This document shows positions 11,248-62,715 of a stretch of DNA of 64,000 nt, one piece after another (the stretch's first letter is position 1; the number at the start of each line of letters is the position of its first letter). A program made the position numbers and the translations under genes. The notes beneath the pieces are model-generated. The model did no database searches, had not been told where the DNA came from, and saw only the letters and a program-made list of their open reading frames with translations. Origin of the DNA: Candidatus Gottesmanbacteria bacterium GW2011_GWA2_43_14 (GTDB lineage: Bacteria > Patescibacteriota > Microgenomatia > 2-02-FULL-39-11); assembly GCA_000999095.1 (NCBI GenBank), contig LCFP01000007.1, forward strand, positions 5,013-69,012, given 5' to 3'.

Positions 11248-12441
11248 ATGAATTTAGCTTACCGGATGCGTCCCCGCAATTTTTCGGAATTTGTCGGCCA
11301 GCTTCATCTGGCCGGTCCCGAGGGAATCCTGCGTAAAACGGTAGCCTCCGGCAACCTTTTCTCCATGATTTTCTGGGGACCTCCAGGGAGCGGCAAGACA
11401 ACACTGGCCGGTCTGATTGCCGCAGAATCCGCAGCGGATTTCATACATTTGTCTGCCGTTGAGAGTGGCAAGGACGATTTAAGGAAATCCCTGGAAAAAG
11501 CCAGGCTCAATCAAAATTATGGCAAAAAGACCATTCTTTTCATTGATGAAATCCACCATTGGAACAAAGCCCAGCAGGACGGGCTCTTGCCTTATGTCGA
11601 GTCGGGCTTGTTAATCCTCATCGGTGCCACCACGGAAAACCCCTCTTTTGAGGTAATCAGCCCGCTTCTGTCCCGCTGCCGGGTTTTTGTTTTGAATCAA
11701 TTGGACCGTTCTGATTTGGAAAAAATTATTAAAAGGGCACTAACCGATAAAGATAGGGGTTTGGGCAAAGCCAAGATTTCCCTGGGTGTGGAAGAAAAAA
11801 AATTATTGATCAGTTTATCCGGAGGTGATGCCCGGGTAATGCTGATTGCATTGGAGATAGCCTCTCAGACTTCCGGAAAAATCAGCCGGGAAACGATAGA
11901 GGATGTTTTTCAGAAAAAATCTGCAGGACTATACGATAAGAAAGGCGAAGAACACTACAATATTATTTCCGCCTTTATCAAATCCGTCCGTGGCTCAGAT
12001 CCCGATGCCGCTTTATTTTATTTGGCCAAAATGCTGGAGGGCGGTGAGGATCCCAAGTTTATTGCCAGACGGATGATAATTCTGGCCTCAGAAGATATCG
12101 GACTGGCTGACCGGGGTGCTTTAATCCAGGCCAATGCCGCCTTTGAGGCGGTGACAAAGATCGGTATGCCGGAAGCACAACTGATTTTGGCACACATCGT
12201 TATTTATCTGGCTAAAGCTCCTAAATCCAGGTTGGTACCCAATGCTTTGGGCAGGGCTAAGCAGGCAGTCTATGAATTCCCAGAGGAAACCGTGCCTTTG
12301 CATCTCAGGAATGCCCCGACCAAACTCATGAAGGAATTGGGATACGCCAAAGACTACAAATGGAGCGAAAAGTATGTCGGCCCCCAAAAAGGCAAATCAT
12401 TTTTGCCTGAAAAACTTAAAGGCAGGAAATTCGTGGAATGA
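11248..12441 (+). CDS. rarA: Replication-associated recombination protein A (RarA/MgsA AAA+ ATPase).
   Basis: [53 protein letters not shown] and [14 protein letters not shown] all align to E. coli RarA. The ORF track starts at 11155, which overlaps dcd, so the ATG at 11248 is preferred. Confidence 0.85.
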
Positions 12442-12950
12442 CCACTTTCAAATTTTGTCCCGTCTGCCGGAGTGAATTGCGCTTTGCCGAAAAAGGGAAA
12501 GCCTCATATTGCCGTACATGCGGTTTTCATTATTACCATAACCCGGCTCCGGCCGTTGCCGCTGTTATCGAAAACAAAAAGCGGGAAATACTCCTGGTCG
12601 GGCGGAAATTCGAGCCGCAAAAGAATTTCTGGGATTTGCCCGGAGGTTTTGTCGACAATGATGAAAATTTGGAGGAGGGGATGGTCAGGGAAATCAGGGA
12701 GGAATTGGGAACGGATATTACCGGTATTAAATATATCGGTTCGGTCCCCGACGACTACCTTTATAAAGGTTACAGATACAAAGTTGTCACCGCCTTTTAT
12801 GCCGGCGAACTTGCCGGGAAAATTAAAGTCGCAGATGACGTTTCCTCTTTCGCCTGGTTTGTGGCGGGCAGTCTGCCGTTTCCCCGGATTGCCTTTAAGG
12901 GCACCAAAGCCATCCTGAAAAAATATACGGCCTCCTGGATTTCCCCTTGA
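12438..12950 (+). CDS. NUDIX hydrolase with an N-terminal zinc-ribbon (NudC-like).
   Basis: A CPVC...CRTC ribbon is followed by a Nudix box GGFVDNDENLEEGMVREIREELG. It overlaps rarA by 4 bp (ATGA). Confidence 0.75.
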   Translation: MTTFKFCPVCRSELRFAEKGKASYCRTCGFHYYHNPAPAVAAVIENKKREILLVGRKFEPQKNFWDLPGGFVDNDENLEEGMVREIREELGTDITGIKYIGSVPDDYLYKGYRYKVVTAFYAGELAGKIKVADDVSSFAWFVAGSLPFPRIAFKGTKAILKKYTASWISP

Positions 12951-12990
12951 CTGGGAATGTTAGCGGTAATACTCTTTTAATGAACCTAAT

Positions 12991-13617
12991 ATGGTTAAGC
13001 AAAAAAGCCTGTTTATTGTTTTTGAAGGACTTGAAGGCAGCGGCAAATCAACTCAGGCAGGACTTTTGGCCAGCCGGCTTATGGAAGCCGGTTATGACAT
13101 AAAAGCGACCAGGGAGCCCGGCGGCACCAGGATTGGGGAGCTGATCCGTCAGATTACCCATTCCAGGGACAATGTGGATCTGACAGCTGTTGCAGAAGGT
13201 TATTTAATGGCCGCTTCCCGTGCCCAGCATATCAGGGAGATTATCAGGCCTGCCTTAAGCGGGGGGAAAATAGTCATCTGCGACCGTTTTCTTGATTCAA
13301 GTCTGGCTTATCAGGGATACGGCCGGGAATTGGGGGAGGAGAAAATGGCGGAATTAAATAAATTAGCCCTGGATGGGATCAAACCCGATCTGGTAATTTT
13401 TTTGGACCTACAACCCGATCTCGGTTTCAGCCGCAGGAACGGCAGCGGTAAAATTGACAGGCTTGATTTGCAGCAAAGCGATTTTTACGCCAGGGTATAC
13501 CGGGGATATAAAAAGCTGGCCGAGAAAAACAGGGATAAATACTTTATTGTCGACAGTTCAAAACCGGTTGAGGAAGCGGCCGCAATTATCTGGAAAAAAG
13601 TAAAATCATTGTTATAA
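12991..13617 (+). CDS. tmk: Thymidylate kinase.
   Basis: P-loop FEGLEGSGKST, REPGGT, and a DRF..S lid region. Confidence 0.85.
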   Translation: MVKQKSLFIVFEGLEGSGKSTQAGLLASRLMEAGYDIKATREPGGTRIGELIRQITHSRDNVDLTAVAEGYLMAASRAQHIREIIRPALSGGKIVICDRFLDSSLAYQGYGRELGEEKMAELNKLALDGIKPDLVIFLDLQPDLGFSRRNGSGKIDRLDLQQSDFYARVYRGYKKLAEKNRDKYFIVDSSKPVEEAAAIIWKKVKSLL

Positions 13618-16472: not shown

Positions 16473-17717
16473 ATGAATTTATCTAAAACCACGGTCGTGA
16501 TAGGCTCGCAATGGGGTGATGAGGGCAAAGGCAAGATCGTAGATTTCCTGTCGGCCAAATCGGATTTTATCGTCAGGTTTCACGGCGGAAATAATGCCGG
16601 ACATACGGTCGTAAACAGCCTCGGTACTTTCAAAATGCATCTTATTCCGTGCGGCGTCTTTTACCCGGGTACTAAACTGGTTATTACTCACGGAGTAGTC
16701 ATCGATCCGCTGACACTTATCAAAGAAATTAAGACTTTGGAAAAATCTGGCGTTTCCCTGGAAAATAGGCTTTTCATTTCACCCCGCGCCCACATTATTA
16801 TGCCTTACCACCGTTTGCTTGATTCCCTTTATGAAAAAAATAAGGGAAAAAATAAGACCGGTACGACCGGCCGGGGGATAGGGCCTGTTTATGCCGACAA
16901 AGTAAGTTACATGGGTATTCGCCTGGAAGATCTGGTTTCGCCAGCTGTTTTTAAGGAAAAAATTGCCCTCTATCTGCCTATCAAGAACAAAATCATCAAA
17001 GCTCTCGGCGGCAAACCTCTTTCTTTTTCCAAAATATTGAAGGAATATACCCTTTATGCCCGCGCCCTGAAAAAATACGTCACTGAACCGTATTTCGTTC
17101 TTGCGGAGGCAGCCGGAAAAGGCAAGCGTATTCTTTATGAAGGTGCCCACGGAATTCTGCTTGACAATGATTGGGGGACGTACCCTTTTGTGACAGCTTC
17201 TTCAGTCCTGCCGGATATTTCCGGTAAAAGCTCAGTCATCGGCATTGTCAAAGCCTATTCGACAAGAGTCGGTGAAGGGCCGCTGCCTACCGAACAGGCA
17301 AACGGCATCGGCGAGAAATTAAGAAAAATAGGGGATGAGTACGGTTCAACCACGGGACGCCCGCGGCGATGCGGTTGGTTTGACGCCGCTCTGGTCAGGT
17401 TTGCCGCGAGAGTCGGGGGTTTTACCGGAATTGCCTTGACCAAACTTGATGTTCTCTCGGATTTTAAAACCATAAAAGTGTCAGTCGGTTACCGCGGCAA
17501 CGGCAAAAATCAGGGCATTTCGGGTTTGGATTTGAAAAAAGCCAAACCCGTTTACCGGACTTTTAAAGGATGGGGGAAGTCCCTTGATAATATTACTTCA
17601 TACAAAAACCTGCCAACTGAAGCGAAAAAATACATAGAATTTATTGAAAGTTTTGTTCAAGTTCCGGTCAAATACATATCAACCGGGCCATCCAGGTCCG
17701 CCTTAATAAATCGATGA
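16473..17717 (+). CDS. purA: Adenylosuccinate synthetase.
   Basis: GSQWGDEGKGK, GHTV, GIGPVYADK and TTGRPRRCGW. The real start is the ATG at 16473 (MNLSKTTVVIG...). Confidence 0.9.
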   Translation: MNLSKTTVVIGSQWGDEGKGKIVDFLSAKSDFIVRFHGGNNAGHTVVNSLGTFKMHLIPCGVFYPGTKLVITHGVVIDPLTLIKEIKTLEKSGVSLENRLFISPRAHIIMPYHRLLDSLYEKNKGKNKTGTTGRGIGPVYADKVSYMGIRLEDLVSPAVFKEKIALYLPIKNKIIKALGGKPLSFSKILKEYTLYARALKKYVTEPYFVLAEAAGKGKRILYEGAHGILLDNDWGTYPFVTASSVLPDISGKSSVIGIVKAYSTRVGEGPLPTEQANGIGEKLRKIGDEYGSTTGRPRRCGWFDAALVRFAARVGGFTGIALTKLDVLSDFKTIKVSVGYRGNGKNQGISGLDLKKAKPVYRTFKGWGKSLDNITSYKNLPTEAKKYIEFIESFVQVPVKYISTGPSRSALINR

Positions 17718-18799
17718 TCAGAACAATCAGACTGGCATTAACTTATGATGATGTTCTTTTGGTGCCCAAACGTTCTTCTTTAAGGTCGCGCAAAGACGTT
17801 GATACTTCCACTTTTCTGACAAGGGAAATAGAATTGAAAATTCCCGTTGTCTCCGCCAACATGGACACGGTGACGGAAGTGCAGATGGCGGTCTCCATGG
17901 CAACATTGGGGGGCATAGGCTTTATCCACCGTTTTTTAACCGTAAACGAGCAGGCCAACCAGATAGCCAAAGTGAAAAAAGCGAAAGTCAGCGATAAAAA
18001 TTTGCGGGCGACGGTTGGCAAGAACGGTAAACTGGCGGTTGGTGCTGCCGTCGGGGTCAAACCCGATGCCCTTGACCGGGCAAAGGCAGCGATTAGCGCC
18101 GGTTGCGATGCTTTGGTCTTGGATATCGCCCACGCTCATGCTGATTCCGCCCTTGAAATCCTGGCTAAATTGAAAAAAAATTTCCCCAAAATCCCGGTAG
18201 TCGCCGGCAATGTGGCAACAGCCGAGGGCACCCGCGACTTAATTAAAGCCGGGGCTGACTGTATAAAAGTCGGCATTGGTCCCGGATCGATGTGCACCAC
18301 CAGGATTATTGCCGGGGCAGGCATACCGCAACTTACGGCTGTTATGGATTGCAGCAAAGTGGCACGTCCTTTGAAAATTCCGATAATCGCCGACGGCGGC
18401 ATCCGCATTCCGTCTGATCTGTCAAAAGCCATCGGAGCCGGAGCCTCGACTGTCATGATCGGCGGTCTTTTTGCCGGCACGACGGAAAGTCCGGGCATGA
18501 CGGTCAACCGTCAGGGCAAGAAATATAAAATATCCCGCGGCATGGCCTCGGTCGGTGCCAATACAGAGAGGATGGAAATGGAAGAACTGCATGAGTATGT
18601 GGCCGAAGGGGTCGAAGCCTTCGTGCCTTTCAGGGGGGAAGTCGAAGAGGTTGTCTCCCATTTGATCGGAGGTTTAAGGTCGGGCATGAGCTATTCCGGC
18701 GCCAGAAATATCAGGGAATTCTGGAAGAAAGCCGAGTTTATCCGCATAACTCCCGCCGGCCGCCAGGAAAGCCTGCCCCATGACGTGGAATTAATGTAA
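17714..18799 (+). CDS. IMP dehydrogenase / GMP reductase family enzyme without CBS domains (361 aa).
   Basis: Catalytic loop GIGPGSMCTTR and a TIM-barrel. It overlaps purA by 4 bp. Its size fits GuaC or a CBS-less GuaB. Confidence 0.75.
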   Translation: MIRTIRLALTYDDVLLVPKRSSLRSRKDVDTSTFLTREIELKIPVVSANMDTVTEVQMAVSMATLGGIGFIHRFLTVNEQANQIAKVKKAKVSDKNLRATVGKNGKLAVGAAVGVKPDALDRAKAAISAGCDALVLDIAHAHADSALEILAKLKKNFPKIPVVAGNVATAEGTRDLIKAGADCIKVGIGPGSMCTTRIIAGAGIPQLTAVMDCSKVARPLKIPIIADGGIRIPSDLSKAIGAGASTVMIGGLFAGTTESPGMTVNRQGKKYKISRGMASVGANTERMEMEELHEYVAEGVEAFVPFRGEVEEVVSHLIGGLRSGMSYSGARNIREFWKKAEFIRITPAGRQESLPHDVELM

Positions 18800-18819
18800 T
18801 TTTTTATTATTATATATTC

Positions 18820-18860
18820 TTGACATATTTAATGTAAATGTTAAAATTTAATGTAAATGA
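18820..18860 (+). promoter_or_regulatory. Promoter with a direct-repeat operator for the vapBC module.
   Basis: TTGACA at 18820-18825 and TAAAAT at 18842-18847. Direct repeats TTTAATGTAAATG at 18828-18840 and 18848-18860 overlap the promoter. Confidence 0.45.
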
Positions 18861-19108
18861 TTCACTACGTTACCATTACTTCCCAGGGACAAATTACCAT
18901 ACCCGCAAAACTCAGACGCAAATTTAATTTCGGGAAAAATAAAAAAGCGATTGTTTCCTATACTGAAAATGGAATTTTGGTTGAACCGGTAAAGGATATC
19001 TTGGAGTTTGAAGGGATCTTTAAGACTGATAAAAAAATTCCTTTTAAAAAAGCCAGGAAGGCATTCGTCGAGTATTTGGCTAGCAGAAGTTCGAGAATTA
19101 GTAAATGA
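18857..19108 (+). CDS. vapB: AbrB/MazE-type antitoxin (VapB-like).
   Basis: VTITSQGQITIPAKLRRKF is a swapped-hairpin barrel motif. It is coupled to the downstream PIN gene through an ATGA overlap. Confidence 0.7.
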   Translation: MIHYVTITSQGQITIPAKLRRKFNFGKNKKAIVSYTENGILVEPVKDILEFEGIFKTDKKIPFKKARKAFVEYLASRSSRISK

Positions 19109-19491
19109 AGCAATATTTGATAGACACGAACTATCTTCTAAGATTTCTGCTATCAGATGTACCTCAACAAACAAAAATCGTCAGACAGTATTTTATACAG
19201 GCAAAACTTGGCGAAACTGAAATAACCATTCCTTATTTGGCAATAATTGAATTGGATTTTAATTTAAGCAAGCTATATAGATTTTCCAAAACGGAAGTCG
19301 TAGAAAAATTATTTACCCTAATTTCAATTCCATATTTAAACTTTGAGAAGAGAGAATTATTGATAAAAGCTATCCCATTATATAGACAGGTAAATTTTGA
19401 CCTTGTTGATATTTTATTCTTCTGTGAAGCCAAATTGACGGGAAAAGAGCTCCTTACTTTTGACCGCAAGTTGAAAAAGCTGAAAGATTAA
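19105..19491 (+). CDS. vapC: PIN-domain toxin (VapC-like).
   Basis: YLIDTNYLLRFLL is the N-terminal PIN motif. The product is 128 aa. Confidence 0.65.
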   Translation: MKQYLIDTNYLLRFLLSDVPQQTKIVRQYFIQAKLGETEITIPYLAIIELDFNLSKLYRFSKTEVVEKLFTLISIPYLNFEKRELLIKAIPLYRQVNFDLVDILFFCEAKLTGKELLTFDRKLKKLKD

Positions 19492-19515
19492 GAAGAAATG
19501 GTCCTGCCTAACGCT

Positions 19516-20949
19516 TTACTGGTTTCGAAAAACGACGCCTTCTCTTTCAGGACTAAAAGAAGTGAAGGTAACTGGGACTTCAGCAATTTCACTGATACGG
19601 TCCAAATAATTCTGCGCGTTTTCAGGCAACTGTTCCCAGTCTTTGATTCCGGGTTGAATTTCTTCCCATCCCGGTAATGTTTCGTATTTCAGATCTTCCG
19701 GTTCCCAATATTTTGTATCATCAACCCTGTGAATGGTTTCAACCCATTGACCGTCAATTTTATAAGCCACGCATATTTGCGGTTCCAGTCCCGATAAAAT
19801 ATCTAGCTTTGTGACTGCTATTTCAGTCATTCCAGACGATTTTGCTGCGTACTTAAGCAATACTCCGTCAAGCCAGCCTACTCTTCTTGGCCGGCCGGTA
19901 GTTGTCCCATATTCATCCCAGGGATTAGCACCAGTTCCGCGGAGTTTCCAGGCAATTTCGTCCGATAATTCTGTCGGAAAAGGCCCTCCACCGACTCTTG
20001 TCTGGAAAGCTTTGGTTACTCCGATTACTCGGTCAAATCTGGAAGAAGGAATATTAAACGATTCTTCCATACCGATCGGACCTGGGTGACTCGAGGTTAC
20101 AAAAGGATATGTACCCCCTGTTAAATCAAGTAGATGGCCTTGAGCACCTTCTCCAAGTCCATCCTTTCCATGATTTAGTAGATTATGAGCTCTCGTAATA
20201 GTATCACCCATATATGGTTTAATTTGCCCCAATTGTTTTCTTAGGGTTTCAGTTTCTTTTTTTATATCCAATGGCTCGTCTGAAGTTGCTGCCTGTAATA
20301 AATTCAGATATCTTTGTTCAGACGCACTTAGATTTTGTGATGAAGCTTTATCAGTCAATATTTCAATAGTCTCAGCAACTCCGGGGTGTTGAGCCATCGC
20401 TCTAATTAATGGGATTCTCTCTTCAAAATAATTTTTTAGGTCAGTATCGAAATTTGCATTTTCAAACCAACCCATTTCCGGCCCTCGGCGGGATGTTCTT
20501 TGGGTATAAGCAGGTCCGATGCCCCTTAATGTTGTTCCAATTTTTCCTCCCTGCACGGCTTCTTTAAGGGCATCTTCCATTAACATGTCCTTTGTAATGA
20601 TTCTGGTATGGTTATCAATTAAGTACCTGTCAGGGTCCACGTCAATATTTCTATTATGTAGCATATTCAATTCATCAAGTAAGGTAGTTGGATTTACAAC
20701 CACTCCTCTTCCGATCATGACAGCCAATTCCGGTCTGACAATAGCAGATGGAGTTAAATGCAATTTAAATATTTCTTTTCCGACAGTGACAGTATGGCCG
20801 GCATTATCACCGCCCCCGTATCTTGCTACCCAATCGGCGTTTTGTGAAAGTAGATCTACCATTCTTCCTTTACCCTCATCACCCCATTGAGTACCTACAA
20901 TGACATCTAATTTTCCTTGTCCTGGCAGTCGATCTGGATTTACCGGCAT
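19516..20949 (-). CDS. Divergent second adenylosuccinate synthetase paralog (477 aa).
   Basis: GTQWGDEGKGR, GHTV and TTGRPRRVGW are purA motifs. There are long insertions relative to the purA at 16473, and the local sequence is AT-rich. Confidence 0.75.
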   Translation of the reverse strand: MPVNPDRLPGQGKLDVIVGTQWGDEGKGRMVDLLSQNADWVARYGGGDNAGHTVTVGKEIFKLHLTPSAIVRPELAVMIGRGVVVNPTTLLDELNMLHNRNIDVDPDRYLIDNHTRIITKDMLMEDALKEAVQGGKIGTTLRGIGPAYTQRTSRRGPEMGWFENANFDTDLKNYFEERIPLIRAMAQHPGVAETIEILTDKASSQNLSASEQRYLNLLQAATSDEPLDIKKETETLRKQLGQIKPYMGDTITRAHNLLNHGKDGLGEGAQGHLLDLTGGTYPFVTSSHPGPIGMEESFNIPSSRFDRVIGVTKAFQTRVGGGPFPTELSDEIAWKLRGTGANPWDEYGTTTGRPRRVGWLDGVLLKYAAKSSGMTEIAVTKLDILSGLEPQICVAYKIDGQWVETIHRVDDTKYWEPEDLKYETLPGWEEIQPGIKDWEQLPENAQNYLDRISEIAEVPVTFTSFSPEREGVVFRNQ

Positions 20950-21131
20950 AAAATATATCTCCTGTTAAATTTTAAGCGTTATGAAATATAGGGGGCAGAA
21001 TTAGAACTATATATAAACTTTTATGATTGTTACGTCAATAGTCTTGTATGATTGGAAAGAACGGATTAGGCGATCAGGGTAATCAGCAGAGACATGTTTT
21101 GATCCTGTTGCATCCAGATGTTATGGATTGA

Positions 21132-21201
21132 CAAAAGTAATTGATATTTTGATTGGAGGTTTAAGGTCGGGCGTGAGCTATTCAGGCACCCGCATTACAT
21201 G
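21132..21201 (+). pseudogene. Fragment of about 22 codons duplicating the 3' end of the IMPDH-family gene at 17714-18799.
   Basis: 21153-21193 is about 90% identical to 18661-18700 (LIGGLRSGVSYSG versus LIGGLRSGMSYSG). An upstream in-frame TGA sits at 21129-21131, and there is no start codon. Confidence 0.6.
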
Positions 21202-21304
21202 AAAACTTCCGTAGATTTTGAATTATTGACTTCCGTTCTCACGTTTTCTATTATATCTTAGTTTATCTTTCCTGCTTGTTTTAATTTCACCTTAAACTTT
21301 ATAT

Positions 21305-22069
21305 ATGACTGTTATCGCAGAGACACTTACTCCAAGAATAGAATTAAATGTTGTTTCTCCTGATAAAAATAATTTACCACTTCACGGTTTAGAAGTAATT
21401 ATCGGAAATCACGATTTTATATTGCCTTATATTGATGTGGCAAAAAAGGGGGAAGGTCATACTTTAATTCCCTTTTTTGATCCCAGACCGGCAGTTAATC
21501 ATGATTTAATGTTGGCTGGTGCAAGGGAGTTGGCCATCGGATTAGTTAATTCAGGAGCAGATGTTGTTTTTACTCCAAAATCAAAAAAATCCGTACCTAT
21601 GATAATAGAAACAGTAAAAATTGCGGGTGAGATATCCGGTAAAAAGATAAAGTTATTTGTAATAAAAAGGGGACTGCTTTCTGATTTTGATGAAACAGAT
21701 GAAAAACCGATAGATTTTGAAACTATTACTCCTCCATATAAGAAATATATGGCTTTAAGTAAAGTTCAGACTTTAGAGATACAACAAATGCAGAAAGAAT
21801 TTATAAATCAGGGAAGAAAAATAAATGCAGTCATAGCTGATGATGTTATCAGTCGTGGGGGTACGGTTAGGGCATTAAGAAAGGTAGTTGGTAAGGTGTT
21901 AAATTATGAAGATTTTGAAATTCCTGCTTATGCTGTAATCCAGGAATTTCCGATTACTTGGGGATTGGGGCAGATACCCGGTGGGCCCAAAATTGATGGA
22001 GGAATATGGACTCCTGAACCGCAGGAATATAATTATCCCGCCATTATGACTCCGGTCATCATAGGATAA
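21305..22069 (+). CDS. Type I phosphoribosyltransferase-fold protein (254 aa).
   Basis: AVIADDVISRGGTVRAL matches the PRPP-binding motif (hhhhDDhhxxGGT). It lies in a purine context. Confidence 0.5.
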   Translation: MTVIAETLTPRIELNVVSPDKNNLPLHGLEVIIGNHDFILPYIDVAKKGEGHTLIPFFDPRPAVNHDLMLAGARELAIGLVNSGADVVFTPKSKKSVPMIIETVKIAGEISGKKIKLFVIKRGLLSDFDETDEKPIDFETITPPYKKYMALSKVQTLEIQQMQKEFINQGRKINAVIADDVISRGGTVRALRKVVGKVLNYEDFEIPAYAVIQEFPITWGLGQIPGGPKIDGGIWTPEPQEYNYPAIMTPVIIG

Positions 22070-22071
22070 AT

Positions 22072-22296
22072 ATGCCTAATACGAGTGAATTTCCTTCATC
22101 TTTATATAAAATTTACGGAAGTGAAATTCCAGGGGGTGTAGTTGCTCCATGTGGATCATGCGGCCAACCGGATGCGCAACTTGCGGCGACCAGAATAATT
22201 TATCAACCAACTGAAGCCGGGAAATTTTTTGGAGCGGAACTAAAATCAGAAATTATTTCCGGCGGACATTCAGGTTGCAAAGGGAACGGTGGGTAG
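22072..22296 (+). CDS. Small hypothetical protein (74 aa).
   Basis: It is tightly coupled, starting 2 nt after the PRTase stop. There is no homology evidence. Confidence 0.25.
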   Translation: MPNTSEFPSSLYKIYGSEIPGGVVAPCGSCGQPDAQLAATRIIYQPTEAGKFFGAELKSEIISGGHSGCKGNGG

Positions 22297-22353
22297 AGTG
22301 AATAAAAAATTAATTGACATAGGTTATTTTATAGGCTAGAAGTAATAGCAATT

Positions 22354-23634
22354 ATGCAGGTTGAATTAACTTCTTTTAATTTAGAGAAAGCTATAGGATT
22401 GCCTCCGGAAGGAATAATTTTCACCCGACCTGAAGTGGCAACTATTAATCCGTTTCTGTTTTCGTCGGATGAATTCAGGACCCGTTTGGTTTTAAAAGAT
22501 GATCAAGTCGCATTTGACCCGGTATTTTTGTATGACTTGTTCGTTATTTCCCAAGCTATTGATGAAACAATAAATCAGAATGCCTCAGTTTTTCCGGATA
22601 TAAAGGACCAGGTGGGGAAGGGAGAATTCCGAGAACTGGTCAGACTGCATGATTCTGAAAAAATGAAGCAGGTGCAGAAAAATTTCATACGCACTCTTAA
22701 AACAGCCCGGGAAGACGTTGAAGAACAGGGACGAAAAGTGGTCATGGCTTTTCCTATATGGGGGTCACTGGCTATCATGAGGGCCATGGAGCGGGAACAA
22801 ATACCTCAGGAAGTTCTTCAACCTGCGGATATATCAGGATCACTGGGTACTGAAACAGGACACGCCAAAGCGGAAAAACTTGCTCCTGAATTGTTGGATC
22901 CTGAGAAAGTCGTTTTTTTCCCGGATGATATCTTTGACACCTGCGTAACTTTAATTGAATTAGGTATTGAAAGAGCAAAAGTAAAAGTAGCAAGAAATGG
23001 GTTAAAAATAAATCACGATATTTTTCAGGACGTTGAAGCTTTCGAGGATAAAATGAGATTAGCCAGAAAAGGTTTATTATCGCAAGAAGAGACGGTCAAA
23101 GTCTGGAAGGATTTGGCAGAATTGTTATGGGAAGTAGATATAATTTCTGCCCCTTTTTCAATTAAAAATCCGCCTTTTGCTGATGCGGTTATTACACTTT
23201 CAACTAAAGTTTGGAAGGATCCTGATTCTTCGGATTGGGACAGAAAGAAAGCAGCAATTCAAGGACAACTGATGTTTCAAACTCATTACATTAATCCGGA
23301 CAACTGGATCATCGGCGGGCGATGGGAAGGAATTCCTTTATTGGATACGAAAGTTAGCGGAAAGACTGTCATGGATTTACTTGCCCGAGATCAGGAAAAG
23401 TATTTGATCACAGAAAAACAATTAAGAAACCTTCAGCAAGCCGGGCTAGACATTCTGAGCTTCAGGGCATTTTCCGGATTGGACGGTTTGTGGGTATTTA
23501 ATCCGGATGGTTTAAACGTAGATAAAGTTAGTGATAATTTCGACAGGGATCTGCTTCCTGAAAATCAGTTGGTTCAGCTTTATGCGGGGTATATTTCAGC
23601 CTATGCTCAAAAACGCTGGCCTGAAATAAATTAA
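22354..23634 (+). CDS. Hypothetical protein (426 aa).
   Basis: A long ORF in the cluster with no recognisable domains. There is a weak PRTase-like patch, VVFFPDDIFDTCVTL. Confidence 0.5.
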   Translation: MQVELTSFNLEKAIGLPPEGIIFTRPEVATINPFLFSSDEFRTRLVLKDDQVAFDPVFLYDLFVISQAIDETINQNASVFPDIKDQVGKGEFRELVRLHDSEKMKQVQKNFIRTLKTAREDVEEQGRKVVMAFPIWGSLAIMRAMEREQIPQEVLQPADISGSLGTETGHAKAEKLAPELLDPEKVVFFPDDIFDTCVTLIELGIERAKVKVARNGLKINHDIFQDVEAFEDKMRLARKGLLSQEETVKVWKDLAELLWEVDIISAPFSIKNPPFADAVITLSTKVWKDPDSSDWDRKKAAIQGQLMFQTHYINPDNWIIGGRWEGIPLLDTKVSGKTVMDLLARDQEKYLITEKQLRNLQQAGLDILSFRAFSGLDGLWVFNPDGLNVDKVSDNFDRDLLPENQLVQLYAGYISAYAQKRWPEIN

Positions 23635-23717
23635 CGGAAGATTTTTTGCCATTAAAGATCTGATTGTTTATACTTTCGTATTAAAAGTTTAATAGATTAC
23701 TTAAATCATTAAATAAT

Positions 23718-25262
23718 ATGCCTCAAGAGGCAGTTAAACCTTTTTATAAACGCCATGACGAATATCTTCGGAATCAGCATGAAACCGGTCTGCCTCCGGT
23801 CGGTTTAACCTTTGAGGATACTCTTATTTTGCCCGCACATTCAACAATTCCTTCAAGAAAGGACGGAAGCATCAGTTTACTTTCACATATTGCCGTAGAT
23901 GTTTATGTGAATTCTCCTATCATGACATCAAATATGGATACGATTACGGAGTGGCGGATGGCTGAAAGAGTGGCATTGTTGGGAGGAGTGGGAGTGATAC
24001 ACCGCTATTTAACATCAGATGAACAGGCGAGACAGGTTAAGCTGGTAAAGGACAGGACGCGTACTTTTCAGGACCGACCTTTTTCCGTTTATCCAGAAGC
24101 AACCATAAAAGATATGAGGAAATTGCAGAAAGATCATAAAACCGGATATTTTTTGGTTCAGGATTTGGAAAATAACCTTTTAGGAATTGTGACTGACAGG
24201 GATTTGGAAAGTACCGATGACCATCATACCCAGGCATTTAATATAATGACACCCCGTGATCAGTTGGTTACAGTTCCGGAAGGTACAACTCCTGAAGAGG
24301 CTGAAAATGTGATGAAAGTGTATAGAAAACAGAAAGTGCCGGTTTTGTCTGCTGACGGAAAAGTCGTGGGAGTATATACCAGAAAAGATTTTGAATTGGC
24401 AAAGAAATACCCGAGCGCTTCCAGGGACAAAAAAGGTAAGTTAATTGTTGGGGCAGCTGTCGGAGTAAAAGACGCAGATGCTGAAACTGAAAGGGCTTAT
24501 AAATTGGTGGATGCGGGCGTTGATTTTCTTATCATCGATATCGCGCACGGTGACAGTGAAAACATGATGAAAATGCTTAAAAGATTAACCAAAGATAAAT
24601 ATATTAATGTCCCTGTTATTGCCGGTAATATCGCTACCGGTGAAGCGGCAGAGGCATTAATCGGGGAGGGAGCTGATGGATTAAAGGTAGGAATAGGGCC
24701 TGGTTGGGCTTGTGATACCAGAGTTGTTGCAGGTGTGGGAAGGGCTCAGTTATCAGCTATAGCCAGTGTTGCGGCCGTGGCTGTTGGTAAAAATATTGCA
24801 GTTATTGCCGATGGGGGAATGCGGAACCCGGGGGATCTGGTTAAAGCGCTGGTTGCCGGAGCTGATATCGGCATGTTTGGAGGAATGTTCGCGGGTACGG
24901 AAGAAACCCCGGGTATAATAATAAAAAGAGGCAATAAAAAATATAAAAGATACGTAGGAATGGCATCAAGGGAAGCTAGAAAGAGGGCTAAATACGCACA
25001 ACAACCTGTTCAAACAATCGGACTGTATGAAGATCGTTTTTCTGATCAGGATGCAGAGGATGAAGAGCCTGCTCCCGAAGGAAGGGAAAAAGAAATACCT
25101 TTCCGCGGACCTGCAACTGATGTCTTTAAATTTATTGAAGGTGGTGTCAGATCGGGCATGAGCTATATTGATGCAAAAACTATCCCTGAAATAAGGGAAA
25201 AAGGAGAATTGGAAAGAATTACTCAAGCGGGTGCGACAGAACAATACGGTGATATAAGTTAG
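23718..25262 (+). CDS. Divergent IMP dehydrogenase-like protein with a CBS pair (514 aa).
   Basis: GGVGVIHRY and a CBS segment GIVTDRDL. The catalytic loop is GIGPGWACDTR, with the Cys retained. There is a large acidic insertion near the C-terminus. Confidence 0.7.
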   Translation: MPQEAVKPFYKRHDEYLRNQHETGLPPVGLTFEDTLILPAHSTIPSRKDGSISLLSHIAVDVYVNSPIMTSNMDTITEWRMAERVALLGGVGVIHRYLTSDEQARQVKLVKDRTRTFQDRPFSVYPEATIKDMRKLQKDHKTGYFLVQDLENNLLGIVTDRDLESTDDHHTQAFNIMTPRDQLVTVPEGTTPEEAENVMKVYRKQKVPVLSADGKVVGVYTRKDFELAKKYPSASRDKKGKLIVGAAVGVKDADAETERAYKLVDAGVDFLIIDIAHGDSENMMKMLKRLTKDKYINVPVIAGNIATGEAAEALIGEGADGLKVGIGPGWACDTRVVAGVGRAQLSAIASVAAVAVGKNIAVIADGGMRNPGDLVKALVAGADIGMFGGMFAGTEETPGIIIKRGNKKYKRYVGMASREARKRAKYAQQPVQTIGLYEDRFSDQDAEDEEPAPEGREKEIPFRGPATDVFKFIEGGVRSGMSYIDAKTIPEIREKGELERITQAGATEQYGDIS

Positions 25263-25292
25263 ATATGAAAGTTGCCAAGTCACAGAGTTTTT

Positions 25293-25420
25293 GGTAAGAT
25301 AATCTCTACTTTCAGAAACCGGGAAGCTCCTGTCCCGACTTAGTCGGGACTCCGGTTTTCAGATAAAGGAGATGAACTTGATTTTGCGGCAGAGTATACC
25401 TCTGTCGTTTTTTTAATAAA
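25293..25420 (+). repeat. Copy A of a ~128-bp structured direct repeat.
   Basis: It is about 93% identical to 25859-25990. It contains the hairpin GTCCCGA..TCGGGAC, an AAGGAG-ATG mini-ORF, and the hairpin CAGAG..CTCTG followed by T7. Confidence 0.85.
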
Positions 25421-25473
25421 AGTAGAGTAGGGTTGATCAGAAATTTACGTCAAATTTCGTGATATAATGTCTG

Positions 25474-25854
25474 TTGATGGGAATTACAAAAGTAAAATTA
25501 ATAATTAAGAATCCGCAGAATCTGAGGCTTAAAATGGAAGGTGATTTTATGGTTGATTCGGGTGCTCATTATACCGTATTGACCGAGAATTTTGTTAAGA
25601 AACTTAATCTCAAGCCGTCTTTTGAACAAGAGTTTGTGTTGGCCGACGGCAATACGGTAAAAAGACCGGTTGGATCAGCGGTGATCAGGTATGGGGACCG
25701 GGAGTTGTACGTACCGGTTGTTTTGGGAGAAAAACAGGACGAGTCGCTTTTAGGGGTGACTACACTGGAAGCTTTTGGTTTGATGCTTGATCCTTTCCGC
25801 CGGAAAATCTATCCAAGCAAATTAATGCTGGGACAGTTGCGGTATATTAGGTAA
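25474..25854 (+). CDS. Retropepsin-like (clan AA) aspartic protease (126 aa).
   Basis: DSGA active-site motif (FMVDSGAHYTVL) and GVTTLEAFG near the C-terminus. It is flanked by direct repeats. Confidence 0.6.
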   Translation: MMGITKVKLIIKNPQNLRLKMEGDFMVDSGAHYTVLTENFVKKLNLKPSFEQEFVLADGNTVKRPVGSAVIRYGDRELYVPVVLGEKQDESLLGVTTLEAFGLMLDPFRRKIYPSKLMLGQLRYIR

Positions 25855-25858
25855 TCTG

Positions 25859-25990
25859 GTAAGATAATCTTTACTTTCAGAAACCGGGAAGCTCCTGTCC
25901 CGACTTAGTCGGGACTCCGGTTTTCAGATAAAGGAGATGAACTTAAATTTTACGGCAGAGTTTATCTCTGTCGTTTTTTTATTAAAAATA
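25859..25990 (+). repeat. Copy B of the ~128-bp structured repeat, sitting in the rpsB leader.
   Basis: See copy A. It ends 18 nt before the rpsB ATG. Its mini-ORF runs into the rpsB start. Confidence 0.85.
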
Positions 25991-26007
25991 GCCGTGGAGG
26001 ATTTATC

Positions 26008-29604: not shown

Positions 29605-29673
29605 GTGGTTTAAGTATAGATTTTCCCTGTGCAAATTAAAAGTTGTATAATCACGCGAATCCGAAGGTCTTAT

Positions 29674-31464
29674 ATGGAAAATGAAGCCAGGAATCAATTG
29701 ATATTAAAACTAAGCCATAATTTTGAATTTGCCACTGCCAGTCTAGATCAATTTTATACAGACTTTTTGGAAAATAATTTGGAGATAAAAGACAAAGTAG
29801 ATACTTTTGCAAAAAGAGTAAATGCTTTATATGGCGGGCAGGAAGCAAGCTATATCGAACACGCATTGAAATTGGCAGTTATAAGTTATCAGTATAATTG
29901 GGATTCTTTAAAACATTACCGAAAATCTCCAACACCGGAAGGGAAAAAAGTTCCAACGCTTTTCCATTCATTGGAAATGGCAGACAAACTGCTTGACGGG
30001 GACGGCCGTGATGATAAGCCCTTCCGCTGGGAAGCTGTAGCCGCCATTTTAATGCATGATATTCCTGAGGATGTGGAAATGGTATTTGTAGAAAACGGGG
30101 GTGAATTTCAGGTAAAAGGAGAAAAATGGTTCGATTTAATTCGTGATTCTTTTGAAACGACCGGTAAAGCTGATTTAATAGTTGATCTGATAAAAGGGGT
30201 AACAGAGAGAAAAATTCCTGATAGGTATAGCGAAGAAGGGAGGGATATCAGAGAAAAAATAAAGGCAACATCAATTTTTAAGATGATTAAAGCCTATGTT
30301 GTTAACGGTCGGATAAAAGGCAGAAAAGTCTTAATGGATGTTCCGGACGTAGAATTAGAGTCGGTTTATGAGGTTGTCTTTAACTTGAATCATTTATTTG
30401 ACAGCGCACTGAGGTCTCCGGAACATCTTCAAATACTGTTATTAAAGATTACGGACATCTGGCATAACTTTCAGACACCGGATTGGGTAAAATCTTCCAA
30501 AGTACTGCGGGGCCGTCTGGCCGCTAGTTTAGCAGAATGGTTTGGTTGGTATTCTATGAGATCAGATTTAGTTACCTTATTAGGTAATGTTGCTGATACT
30601 ACCACGGCATATGCGCCGGAATTGGAATATGAGTTACTTCCCCATAGTGAATTAATGGATAAAATGCTTAAGATGGAGGAATTTGGAAATCAGTTTATTG
30701 AAACACTTAAGAAAAAAGGCATTATACCCGGGACAGCAGAATTTATTTCATCAATAGGTTTTCCGGTCGTAAACAGTGAATATGAATTGGGGAAATTTGA
30801 CGGATCAACCCTGCCAAAACCAGAATTTATAGTATCTTTTGAAAACGAGGCTTTTACGATTTTAGAGGGCGACATAAAGCAAAACTATACCACTATAAGG
30901 TTATTATTACAGAATCAGGAGGTTGCTGCAGGTGAGTCTATAGCCGGTTTAAAAATAAAAAATTACCAGGACAGCATATATTACAGAAAACTAATGGGAC
31001 GATATAGAATTGACGGAGTTTTAAAATTAGGAAACAATGAAGGATTTTTATTTAGAATGGAGAGCAATGAGCCTTATATGACTGATTACTTTAAGGAAAG
31101 ATCGGATGTAAATTATACGGAAATACCCGAATATAAGGGGTTATTTCATAATAAACTCAGGGATAAAGAAGGATGGAGGATTCATTTAAATGCACTAATA
31201 GGTTTTTTCTACGAACCAAATATGCCTTCTTCTCTGTCCAGATTGATATCTCCAGTATTTTACGACGGTTCACTTTATTTTGTTGATGGGGAGCAGACAT
31301 TTTCAGAATTAAAAGATCTATTAAATTTAAAAGCGGATATTTTGATTGATAATCCCGTAAGTTATAAAAATAAAAGAATCACCGGTAAAACTAAAGTTCG
31401 TGATTTATTTCCATCTGCAGCCAGATCTCACGTTATCAAGAGGAGAATGATTACCGTTCAATAA
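29674..31464 (+). CDS. HD-domain protein with a RelA/SpoT-type hydrolase fold and a ~350-aa unknown C-terminal region.
   Basis: YIEHALKLAVISY, AAILMHDIPEDV and KITDIWHNFQT align to SpoT HD motifs (PYITHPVAVA, ALLHDVIEDT, KLADRTHNMRT). The -10 box TGTATAAT at 29645 supports the start at 29674. Confidence 0.5.
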   Translation: MENEARNQLILKLSHNFEFATASLDQFYTDFLENNLEIKDKVDTFAKRVNALYGGQEASYIEHALKLAVISYQYNWDSLKHYRKSPTPEGKKVPTLFHSLEMADKLLDGDGRDDKPFRWEAVAAILMHDIPEDVEMVFVENGGEFQVKGEKWFDLIRDSFETTGKADLIVDLIKGVTERKIPDRYSEEGRDIREKIKATSIFKMIKAYVVNGRIKGRKVLMDVPDVELESVYEVVFNLNHLFDSALRSPEHLQILLLKITDIWHNFQTPDWVKSSKVLRGRLAASLAEWFGWYSMRSDLVTLLGNVADTTTAYAPELEYELLPHSELMDKMLKMEEFGNQFIETLKKKGIIPGTAEFISSIGFPVVNSEYELGKFDGSTLPKPEFIVSFENEAFTILEGDIKQNYTTIRLLLQNQEVAAGESIAGLKIKNYQDSIYYRKLMGRYRIDGVLKLGNNEGFLFRMESNEPYMTDYFKERSDVNYTEIPEYKGLFHNKLRDKEGWRIHLNALIGFFYEPNMPSSLSRLISPVFYDGSLYFVDGEQTFSELKDLLNLKADILIDNPVSYKNKRITGKTKVRDLFPSAARSHVIKRRMITVQ

Positions 31465-62043: not shown

Positions 62044-62715
62044 TTACTCAAGAAGTAAATGTTCAATCCTCTTTAATCCTCGTTGATAATCTGCTTGGTT
62101 TAAAATAAACTCTTTGTATTTTTCAGAATCTTTAAAAAATGACAAAATTTTTGTAGTATTTACGATATTGTTGTTACTTTTTAACAGATAAGATTGAAAA
62201 GATGACCATGGATAGGATTCAACATCAGAAATTCTTTTTATTAAATATGAAGTGTAGGGGTTTAAATGAATATAGCGTGAAACATGAATGAATTGATTTT
62301 CAGTTTCGATTCTTATCGCTTTAAATTGATTTAAAAAAATAGCACCGTCCTTTTTATTAAGACTGTTAAAAAACCGTGTATAACTATTTTGGAAATTGCT
62401 TAAAAATTTCGATATTCCATTGTCAAATTCTTGTTCGAGGAGGAAATGGAAATGATTTGGCATTAAGCAATAGCAATAAATTTGGATCATTTTCCGATCC
62501 TTTTTAAGGTCTTTTAGTATCTTTTGTCGCTTTTGTCGTTCCAAACTTAGAATTTTTGACAAGCTAAATGGGGGATTAAGATATTGGTATAATTCAAGTG
62601 CAAGAAGTGCTCTTTCATATTCCCGTTTCGAGGTAAATGTTGGTCGACGATCAATTCCTCGATTAAATACATGATAGATTTCATGATTGACTAAGGGTAC
62701 CAGTCGTCCGGGCAT
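62044..62715 (-). mobile_element. REP-associated tyrosine transposase (RAYT, IS200/IS605 TnpA-like HuH Y1 transposase).
   Basis: HuH motif LMPNHFHFLL and catalytic Tyr region SRYIHLNP. The product is 223 aa and is flanked by inverted REP copies. Confidence 0.75.

Follow-up and report, generated by a model that had tools for sequence, protein, structure and literature searches.

A probable purine salvage and interconversion locus with two non-orthologous enzyme sets in a Candidatus Gottesmanbacteria genome

Why does a bacterium with a tiny genome carry, within 9 kb, two genes for adenylosuccinate synthetase (PurA) and two for proteins of the inosine monophosphate (IMP) dehydrogenase (IMPDH)/guanosine monophosphate (GMP) reductase family? 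The question is raised by a 64-kb stretch of DNA, hereafter the window, from Candidatus Gottesmanbacteria bacterium GW2011_GWA2_43_14, a metagenome-assembled genome (MAG) from groundwater that belongs to the Candidate Phyla Radiation (CPR)/Patescibacteria. These organisms are thought to live on host-derived nucleotides or bases, and much of their physiology hinges on how they balance A and G pools. A first-pass annotation had listed, besides the two pairs, a phosphoribosyltransferase (PRTase)-like gene, a 426-aa gene and a VapBC module, and the map of open reading frames (ORFs) together with domain scans confirmed this gene set in full. All of these genes are full length, and the catalytic residues are intact in both PurA and both IMPDH-family proteins. 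The reading that we prefer, with a probability of about 0.6, is that the region is a purine salvage and interconversion locus with two non-orthologous functional enzyme sets, of which one (set B, 19.5-25.3 kb) is resident in the lineage and the other (set A, 16.5-18.8 kb) is a bicistron. The locus is overall an ordinary one of its kind, and what is new are the protein-family variants that it contains: the family of the 426-aa protein (unk426) and its fusion to an IMPDH-type enzyme, an IMPDH clade with a G[WY]ACDTR loop, and a PurA subfamily with Tyr143 and His or Met224 whose neighbouring gene co-varies. Literature searches found no description of the locus, of these PurA variants or of the unk426 family.

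Set A opens with purA1 (16473-17717, + strand; Pfam Adenylsucc_synt 1-416/416, 516 bits), and its stop codon overlaps the start of IMPDH1 (17714-18799, +; 361 aa; PF00478 1-345/345, without CBS domain) in an ATGA, which bears out the coupling to a CBS-less family member that had been pointed out before. Set B consists of PurA2 (19516-20949, -; 477 aa; Pfam PurA (PF00709) 1-414/416, 429 bits), PRT254 (21305-22069, +; 254 aa), which has the phosphoribosyl pyrophosphate (PRPP)-binding motif of type I PRTases, AVIADDVISRGGT, the tightly coupled s74 (22072-22296, +; a 74-aa Cys/His-containing small protein), unk426 (22354-23634, +; 426 aa) and IMPDH2 (23718-25262, +; 514 aa; PF00478 and two CBS domains; catalytic loop GPGWACDTR). 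In the scheme that we propose, unk426 and/or PRT254 with s74 would join a salvaged purine base to PRPP, IMPDH2 with its CBS regulation would act at the node of IMP, xanthosine monophosphate (XMP) and GMP, and PurA2 would commit IMP to adenylosuccinate. In set A, IMPDH1 would most likely turn GMP into IMP by a GMP-reductase-like step, and PurA1 would turn IMP into adenylosuccinate. Together, the two sets could allow a cell that presumably lacks de novo synthesis to balance A and G nucleotides from any base it obtains.

The residency of set B is seen first in its place on the chromosome (relatives' loci and proteins are given below by our working labels, L- and P-numbers, respectively). In the window it lies between a gene for a TPM-domain protein and rpsB-tsf, and IMPDH2 with the unk426 gene is found immediately 5' of rpsB-tsf in at least four other lineages (L001, L007/L008, L282 and L283-L285). 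In L007/L008, from Gottesmanbacteria RIFCSPHIGHO2_01_FULL, the order is DCD-MgsA-NUDIX-Tmk-LemA-TPM, a PurA2-type gene, unk410, an IMPDH2-type gene and rpsB-tsf, and in L001 it is Tmk-LemA-TPM, a 589-aa PurA, PurB, unk418, an IMPDH2-type gene and rpsB-tsf. L282 has an unk426::IMPDH2 fusion directly 5' of rpsB, and L283-L285 have an IMPDH2-type gene between PIN toxin-antitoxin modules, 5' of rpsB-tsf. L004 carries the window's upstream genes, VapBC, an insertion sequence (IS) element, unk426 and a Ham1-fusion protein, and L006 runs PurA2, PRT253, s72 and a Ham1-like gene; the position and orientation of PurA2 are the same in L007/L008 and L006. Between the window and L007, IMPDH2 is 73% identical, compared to 73% for rpsB, 73% for Tmk, 75% for RRF and 70% for LemA, and between the window and L001 it is 61% identical, against 59-65% for the flanking genes, thus IMPDH2 has co-diverged with the chromosome. 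Nei-Gojobori dN/dS (non-synonymous over synonymous divergence) against orthologues was 0.09-0.15 for PurA2 and IMPDH2 (0.10-0.14 for IMPDH2), 0.33 for PRT254, 0.25 for s74 and 0.08 for rpsB, all rough figures since dS is near saturation. PurA2 and IMPDH2 are under purifying selection.

The two PurA proteins are of separate ancestry. They share 35-37% identity, rank only 106th-121st among each other's relatives and were paired in 0/50 bootstraps of a neighbour-joining (NJ) tree of 124 PurAs, so that they never group and each is nearer to PurAs of other organisms. This rules against the plain in-lineage duplication for which the first-pass annotation had suggested such a tree as a test. The PurA2 clade is specific to Gottesmanbacteria (50/50 bootstraps), and its nearest relatives outside this group are ordinary Anaerolineae-type PurAs (48-52% identity). 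The description of PurA2 as highly divergent with long insertions was overstated: it is 48-52% identical to ordinary bacterial PurA, carries a 12-aa N-terminal extension and has a single 35-aa insertion (residues 161-195) that P0011 and P0012, the two proteins most closely related to it, also carry. With a score of 415.5 it also exceeds the cut-off of 402 of the NCBIfam purA equivalog (NF002223/TIGR00184).

In L001, L004 and L007 the purA1-IMPDH1 pair is missing from this locus; set A is a locus-variable pair and set B the lineage's long-resident set. Elsewhere, set A is common. A metagenome scan with the peptide ADKVSY[MN]GIR of the PurA1 subfamily, which has Tyr at the position of E. coli Arg143, gave at least 119 loci, and in this subfamily position 224 was Met in 38, His in 36 and Gln in 27 cases (among the matches listed, at least 118 metagenomic sequences). 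A His224 purA followed on the same strand, at a distance of 0-205 bp, by a CBS-less IMPDH1-like gene (343-349 aa) occurred in at least 10-13 loci, which is exactly the arrangement of set A, and in at least four of these purB lies upstream of purA. At least 20 loci have a Met224 purA and a CBS-containing IMPDH1-like gene in divergent orientation, and residue 224 co-varies with the type of the adjoining IMPDH-family gene (among the matches listed). The Gln224 representatives were found without a neighbouring IMPDH-family gene (L163-L281, among the matches listed). The operon type [purB]-purA(Tyr143/His224)-CBS-less IMPDH is widespread in Patescibacteria and Chloroflexota, and the Tyr143 type appears to be a common PurA of Patescibacteria; set A is thus a recurrent operon and no oddity.

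The alternative that survives best is that set A was imported recently, for instance from Chloroflexota, between the TPM gene and VapBC, and that set B alone is native; we consider this unlikely. The absence of the pair in three related loci fits an import, as does the fact that, for PurA and IMPDH genes kept side by side, the best matches (among the matches listed from species-representative genomes) are the Anaerolineae MAGs L010 and L011, with which PurA1 grouped in 34/50 bootstraps of the NJ tree. A 57-nt relic of IMPDH1 located 2.5 kb away (21148-21204, +), between PurA2 and PRT254, points to rearrangement. The relic is 86% identical in nucleotides to 18661-18717, translates to ...LIGGLRSGVSYSGTRIT followed by a stop, aligns to IMPDH1 with a score of 73 versus a shuffle maximum of 44 and matches C-termini of IMPDH-family proteins in tblastn. 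It was copied from the 3' portion of IMPDH1 in an earlier rearrangement or partial duplication. A repeat search found no mobile-element boundaries around purA1-IMPDH1, only this relic. Against a recent import, the closest PurA1 relatives (53-58% identity, on low-GC contigs) fall in clusters named Patescibacteria group or Candidatus Levyibacteriota (among the matches listed), a range that is compatible with vertical descent within Microgenomates; the pair may be vertical in this genome or may have moved within the CPR. Moreover, set A resembles the window in GC content and in GC content at third codon positions (GC3), and none of the sampled donors exceeds ~60% identity, so that no recent event is visible. 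The matches listed from the species-representative genomes were dominated by the generic QWGDEGKG motif and did not include the source genome, hence relatives may have been missed. An Anaerolineae origin of set A was an interim idea that we downgraded when the targeted metagenome scan and a cluster look-up gave the closer Patescibacteria/Levyibacteriota relatives.

The second set is indeed AT-rich, though moderately so, and the effect shows best at third codon positions. Whereas the window has a GC3 of 0.465 (standard deviation 0.077, 60 ORFs), and purA1 (0.475) and IMPDH1 (0.577) are typical or high, the five genes VapC, PurA2, PRT254, unk426 and IMPDH2 form an unbroken run of low GC3 (0.25-0.36; z -1.3 to -2.8). 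This composition underlay the proposal that PurA2, PRT254, unk426 and IMPDH2 are a horizontally acquired island, for example of phage auxiliary metabolic genes, beside the VapBC module (VapB, an AbrB/MazE-type antitoxin, 18857-19108, +, Pfam MazE_antitoxin PF04014, E 1.6e-7; VapC, a PIN toxin, 19105-19491, +, Pfam PIN PF01850, E 1.2e-7), whose frames overlap by 4 nt (19105-19108), as fits a VapBC type II toxin-antitoxin pair. An island would also agree with the Anaerolineae-type relatives of PurA2, with PHROG families that match PurA2 and IMPDH2, and with the different PurA type that occupies the same slot in L001 and L005, by which PurA was replaced at this position at some point. Nevertheless, we judge it very improbable. 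At least four other lineages share the synteny of the set, VapBC itself is syntenic in L004 (VapB 61%, VapC 54% identity), and IMPDH2 has diverged as far as the housekeeping genes that flank it. In three sister genomes the set-B orthologues are likewise the lowest-GC3 genes of their neighbourhoods, with 0.23 for IMPDH2 in L007 (~0.40 around it), 0.24-0.30 for the block in L001 (versus 0.33-0.44) and 0.22-0.23 in L004. Since the sister orthologues are also poor in GC3, low GC3 is a lasting property of the set-B genes and no mark of recent arrival. Nor did the searches find a viral relative of the unk426 family; the best viral PurA is at most 42% identical to a window PurA, cellular PurAs being closer, and the PHROG matches are generic. 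With no close viral relatives, and with housekeeping genes as neighbours, an origin as phage auxiliary metabolic genes was rejected, and the recent or phage version of the island is already largely refuted.

The PurA slot itself is unstable, as it holds PurA2-type or 589-aa-type genes at the same position in different lineages; an ancient PurA replacement here is possible, while a recent one is not supported. The 589-aa protein (L001 6475-8244, -; L005 2-457, -) adjoins PurB and is a very divergent member of the PurA family, with a 57-aa N-terminal extension, several insertions, THLD for TKLD, RPRH for RPRR and Tyr at the position of R143. It sits in the slot that PurA2 takes in the window and may thus have changed function. 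Two further AT-rich ORFs, at 62044-62715 (-; GC/GC3 0.31/0.25) and 29629-31464 (+; 0.36/0.32), lie in the window, thus the purine block is not its only AT-rich patch.

In which direction do the two IMPDH-family enzymes work? IMPDH1, IMPDH2 and unk426 are identical to public proteins of this genome, and the first two bear the putative names 'GMP reductase' (KKS97581.1) and 'IMP dehydrogenase' (KKS97587.1), respectively. The active-site loops are GPGSMCTTR in IMPDH1 and GPGWACDTR in IMPDH2. The catalytic loop of IMPDH2 had been called altered, which holds for the flanking positions only; Cys, Thr at +2 and Arg at +3 are kept, as they are in IMPDH1, so that on this check, as in PurA2, the divergent copy retains its catalytic residues. 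Trp at -2, Ala at -1 and Asp at +1 are conserved in the IMPDH2 clade as G[WY]ACDTR (L001, L007, P0130 and P0131), and this type of loop is rare elsewhere (6/159 sequences). In the IMPDH mechanism, an Arg-Tyr dyad on a mobile flap activates water. Neither protein has this dyad: IMPDH2 has a long, variable, acidic flap with DRF in place of DRY at the canonical spacing from PEG, and IMPDH1 has ERM. The IMPDH1 family shares a shortened flap, AN-x-[DE]R[QNM], in which the Arg is present and the dyad Tyr missing, and it has GMAS and EGVEA where canonical IMPDH has GMGS and EGIEG. The characterised GMP reductase (GMPR) of Trypanosoma brucei shows the same pattern (GMAGFGAN...AERE...EGVEG), and its structure 6lk4 is the third best PDB match of IMPDH1 (350 bits; T. 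maritima IMPDH reaches 381). Over the C-terminal half, T. brucei GMPR is nearest to IMPDH1-family proteins, a grouping without bootstrap support. An NJ tree of these halves separated dyad-less sequences (68/70) from dyad-containing ones (11/52), a split found in 2/40 bootstraps that partly reflects the flap itself.

The curated models gave no clearer answer. The IMP dehydrogenase model TIGR01302 (cut-off 481.5) was not reached by IMPDH1 (375.5, without the model's CBS part), IMPDH2 (442.4) or the L007 orthologue (443.5). The GMP reductase models PRK05096 and TIGR01305 (cut-offs 397 and 492) and the GuaB1-type model NF052358 (675) were not reached by IMPDH1 (253, 245 and 301, respectively), nor was 397 or 675 reached by IMPDH2 (205 and 289). 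A T. brucei GMPR-like sequence also passes TIGR01302, so this model does not discriminate. Pair 1 had been read as a route from GMP through IMP to adenylosuccinate, and this is plausible in view of the flap Arg without dyad Tyr, as in the related T. brucei enzyme; judging from these motifs, we lean towards IMPDH1 being a GMP reductase. As for context, guaA is not near in any of six IMPDH2/unk426-type contexts, and in L001 and L005 four adjoining genes encode a PRTase-like protein, IMPDH2, PurA and PurB. This four-gene set would complete a route from guanine through GMP, IMP and adenylosuccinate to adenosine monophosphate (AMP) if IMPDH2 were a reductase. Current annotation models do not separate dehydrogenase from reductase here, and the roles of IMPDH1 and IMPDH2 are putative.

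The unk426 protein matches no sequence in Pfam, NCBIfam or PDB, and a word-indexed search of 5.8 billion proteins gave seven relatives; two more distant members, each at 99.7% in hhalign, are unk410 of L007 and P0131 in its N-terminal half. Its AlphaFold2 (AF2) model (predicted local distance difference test, pLDDT, 65) had as top Foldseek PDB matches hypoxanthine(-guanine) PRTases, with a probability of 0.98-0.99, E 0.02-0.1 and a TM score to the target of 0.4-0.5 over 105-176 columns. With hhalign it aligned to E. coli Hpt (in an approximate sequence) at E 0.021, pairing WGS with RGS in the pyrophosphate (PPi) loop, ISGSxG with SSYGSG in the flexible loop and DDIFDT with EDIIDT in the PRPP motif. 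The latter motif, a hydrophobic run followed by two acidic residues and xxD[TS]xx[TS], is present in unk426 as VVFFPDDIFDTCVT; D191, D192, D195 and T196 are invariant in 7/7 family members, and the motif also occurs in the distant L007 and P0131 proteins. The invariant APFxIKN and WIIGG...LLDTK recall the Lys and hood regions of 6-oxopurine PRTases. Most likely, to go by the model, the core of unk426 (residues ~100-215 and 315-335) is hypoxanthine PRTase-like, and a helical insertion and an extension at the C-terminus are added to it. The family adjoins purine genes in all contexts examined, and in P0131 (L282 183-2855, +), a natural fusion, residues 1-405 are an unk426-family domain that is joined to an IMPDH2-type enzyme with the loop GYACDTR. 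Because of this fusion and the constant purine-gene neighbours, unk426 and IMPDH2 are taken as a functional couple. The unk426 family is a new, small and unannotated one that is tied to an IMPDH-type enzyme, and these organisms probably have in it their missing 6-oxopurine PRTase; by analogy with PurR or PyrR, unk426 may instead be a regulatory PRPP sensor. In L004 a 659-aa protein with an N-terminal Ham1/ITPase domain and ~430 uncharacterised C-terminal residues is encoded after unk426 (11421-13397, +).

PRT254 showed weak matches to the NCBIfam adenine PRTase models, over the motif only, and has just two relatives among the 5.8 billion proteins. Its AF2 model is poor (pLDDT 47), with weak Foldseek matches that include PyrR, hypoxanthine-guanine PRTase and orotate PRTase, and a fold assignment was given up for this reason. 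The PRT254 orthologue in L006 has the same neighbours, among them a 72-aa orthologue of s74 (48% identity) that follows it; s74 has no family match in Pfam or NCBIfam. A Ham1-like protein is encoded after this PRT253-s72 pair (L006 1485-2273, +); like its L004 counterpart, it adds an uncharacterised protein to the purine neighbourhood.

The first of the less probable alternatives still to be weighed concerns chemistry. The hallmarks of PurA, in E. coli numbering, are the catalytic Asp13 and His41, the Asp-binding TTGRxRR and the GTP-specificity TKLD; Arg143 is supplied by the partner subunit and meets the 5'-phosphate of IMP. PurA1 and PurA2 both carry GDEGKG (Asp13), NAGHT (His41), TTGRPRR and TKLD, and PurA2 keeps every canonical substrate residue, including R143 and Q224. 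In PurA1 these two positions are Tyr and His, whereas 118/124 sampled PurAs have Arg and Gln, and by these residues the seemingly canonical purA1-IMPDH1 pair looks more unusual at the active site than PurA2. In PurA and PurZ structures the equivalents of R143 and Q224 touch the nucleotide phosphate and line the base pocket (PMC8342488). Their replacement in PurA1 and its subfamily, and the co-variation of residue 224 with the neighbouring IMPDH-family gene, raise the idea that PurA with Tyr143 and His or Met224, or the IMPDH2 that has the G[WY]ACDTR loop and a fused PRTase-like partner, uses substrates other than IMP, such as GMP or XMP. In IMPDH2 the loop Ser two residues before the catalytic Cys, presumably a contact to the IMP phosphate, is replaced by Trp or Tyr. 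We would bet heavily against this idea. PurA1 scores 501.9, well above the purA equivalog cut-off; the Tyr143 type is apparently the ordinary PurA of many Patescibacteria, and other IMPDH-family members vary at the same loop positions. The hallmark of PurZ, the phage 2-aminoadenylosuccinate synthase, is a Ser that replaces the catalytic Asp13 (PMC8342488); both window proteins keep the Asp, and they score 96 (PurA1) and 105 (PurA2) on the PurZ model NF038379, which has a cut-off of 300. The specific form in which Tyr143/(His or Met)224 PurA aminates GMP or XMP from its co-evolving, dyad-less IMPDH-family partner, and not IMP, seems just as improbable. If true, its product would, with PurB, become a 2-substituted adenylate, and cells would have, at the ribonucleotide level, a counterpart to the PurZ pathway of phages. 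In a milder version, Tyr143-type operons may be dedicated GMP-to-AMP units and unk426::IMPDH2 a PRTase-oxidoreductase couple that channels a salvaged base.

An ancient in-lineage duplication in which one copy drifts under relaxed constraint or decays into pseudogenes, as suggested by two copies of each enzyme side by side, the PurA2 insertion, and the altered loop and dyad Tyr-to-Phe change of IMPDH2, is the least probable reading of all and is already contradicted, given PurA copies that never pair, an IMPDH1 that is 55-57% identical to Anaerolineae proteins versus 43% to IMPDH2, full-length frames, conserved catalytic residues and a dN/dS of ~0.1.

Further out, the 5' side of purA1 carries genes for dCTP deaminase, MgsA, NUDIX, thymidylate kinase, a GDSL hydrolase, LemA and a TPM-domain protein. 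In several Gottesmanbacteria-like genomes, PIN-type toxin-antitoxin modules have a hotspot between Tmk/TPM and rpsB (window 18857-19491; L004 6118-7515; L283 5869-10268). On the 3' side, IMPDH2 is followed by a clan-AA aspartic protease gene (25474-25854) and then by rpsB and tsf. The protease gene is flanked by a direct repeat of ~135 nt (25292-25425 and 25857-25991; 97% and 89% identity over two parts), which holds a long hairpin and a terminator-like hairpin and matches no Rfam family. Since sister genomes run directly from IMPDH2 to rpsB, the protease gene and the repeat seem to have come in as a small insertion, with duplication of the IMPDH2-rpsB spacer. Rfam gave no riboswitch or leader with E < 0.19 near the purine genes (15.5-26.5 kb). 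A PADLOC scan for defence systems matched 0/10 locus proteins, on which a defence reading was dropped. Two 767-aa ORFs of the window that had been considered possible duplicates turned out to be unrelated.

Several observations weigh against a purine salvage and interconversion locus with two functional sets as we describe it. Neither purB nor guaA was found in the 64-kb window, which bears on the completeness of the pathway. PurA1 lacks R143 and Q224, both substrate contacts in characterised PurA and PurZ, and its use of IMP is assumed. Neither IMPDH-family protein reaches any NCBIfam equivalog cut-off; a CBS-containing, full-length relative of IMPDH1 (L010) passes TIGR01302 (549.8 vs 481.5), and in L270 and L183 guaA lies in the same operon as an IMPDH1-family gene, which fits a true IMP dehydrogenase. 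For IMPDH2 the odds between the two directions are, from its residues, about even: its orthologues have DRY (L007) and ERY (L001) at the canonical spacing, and the flap motif is absent in P0130 and in the fusion P0131, hence this clade seems able to do without the dyad. The assignment of unk426 as a PRTase, and with it any base specificity, leans on a model of pLDDT 65, a Foldseek E of ~0.02 and short motifs. Finally, the lasting GC3 deficit of set B belongs to this list. The locus nonetheless carries a wider message, as the odd-looking set is the resident one, and composition and divergent looks are poor guides to foreignness in such genomes. The large PurA subfamily with two changed pocket residues, one of which tracks the neighbouring gene, offers a handle on the assignment of IMPDH-family proteins. 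Known biochemistry is not overturned unless the enzymology proves unusual.

How does the locus compare with known systems? Like PurA of E. coli (1ade) and B. anthracis (4m0g), PurA1 and PurA2 are full length and have Asp13, His41, the Asp-binding Arg pair and TKLD; PurA2 differs by its clade-specific 35-aa insertion, and PurA1 by R143 to Tyr and Q224 to His. Compared to phage PurZ, both lack the Ser-for-Asp13 exchange and stay below the PurZ cut-off. The T. brucei GMPR (PDB 6lk4, 6jig) has GMAxxGAN, EGVE and a flap with Arg and without Tyr in common with the IMPDH1 family, while IMPDH-like GMPRs carry CBS domains that IMPDH1 lacks. Mycobacterial GuaB1, an IMPDH-family protein, bears the database name IMP dehydrogenase, yet reduces GMP (PMC9790621); it is distant from IMPDH1 (213 bits; GuaB1 model 301 vs 675). 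With E. coli Hpt (5knx, 1g9t) the unk426 model appears to share the core fold, and its motifs come in the same succession (PPi loop, flexible loop, the acidic DDxxD[TS] of PRPP binding, Lys after the next strand and a hydrophobic-GG hood), whereas unk426 is ~250 residues longer, has a helical insertion and a C-terminal domain, carries Cys where the motif has Gly and is coupled genetically, or fused, to an enzyme of the IMPDH family. The closest parallel for the whole is the salvage and interconversion network of Helicobacter pylori, with PurA, PurB, GuaB, GuaA, GuaC and PRTases and without de novo synthesis (PMC3368855). The enzyme families are the same, as are the interconversion of AMP and GMP via IMP from salvaged bases, the reduced genome and the use of external purines. 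In contrast to H. pylori, the window lacks purB and guaA, its putative PRTases belong to highly divergent, unannotated families, and PurA and IMPDH-family genes each occur twice in it, next to each other and with separate ancestries.

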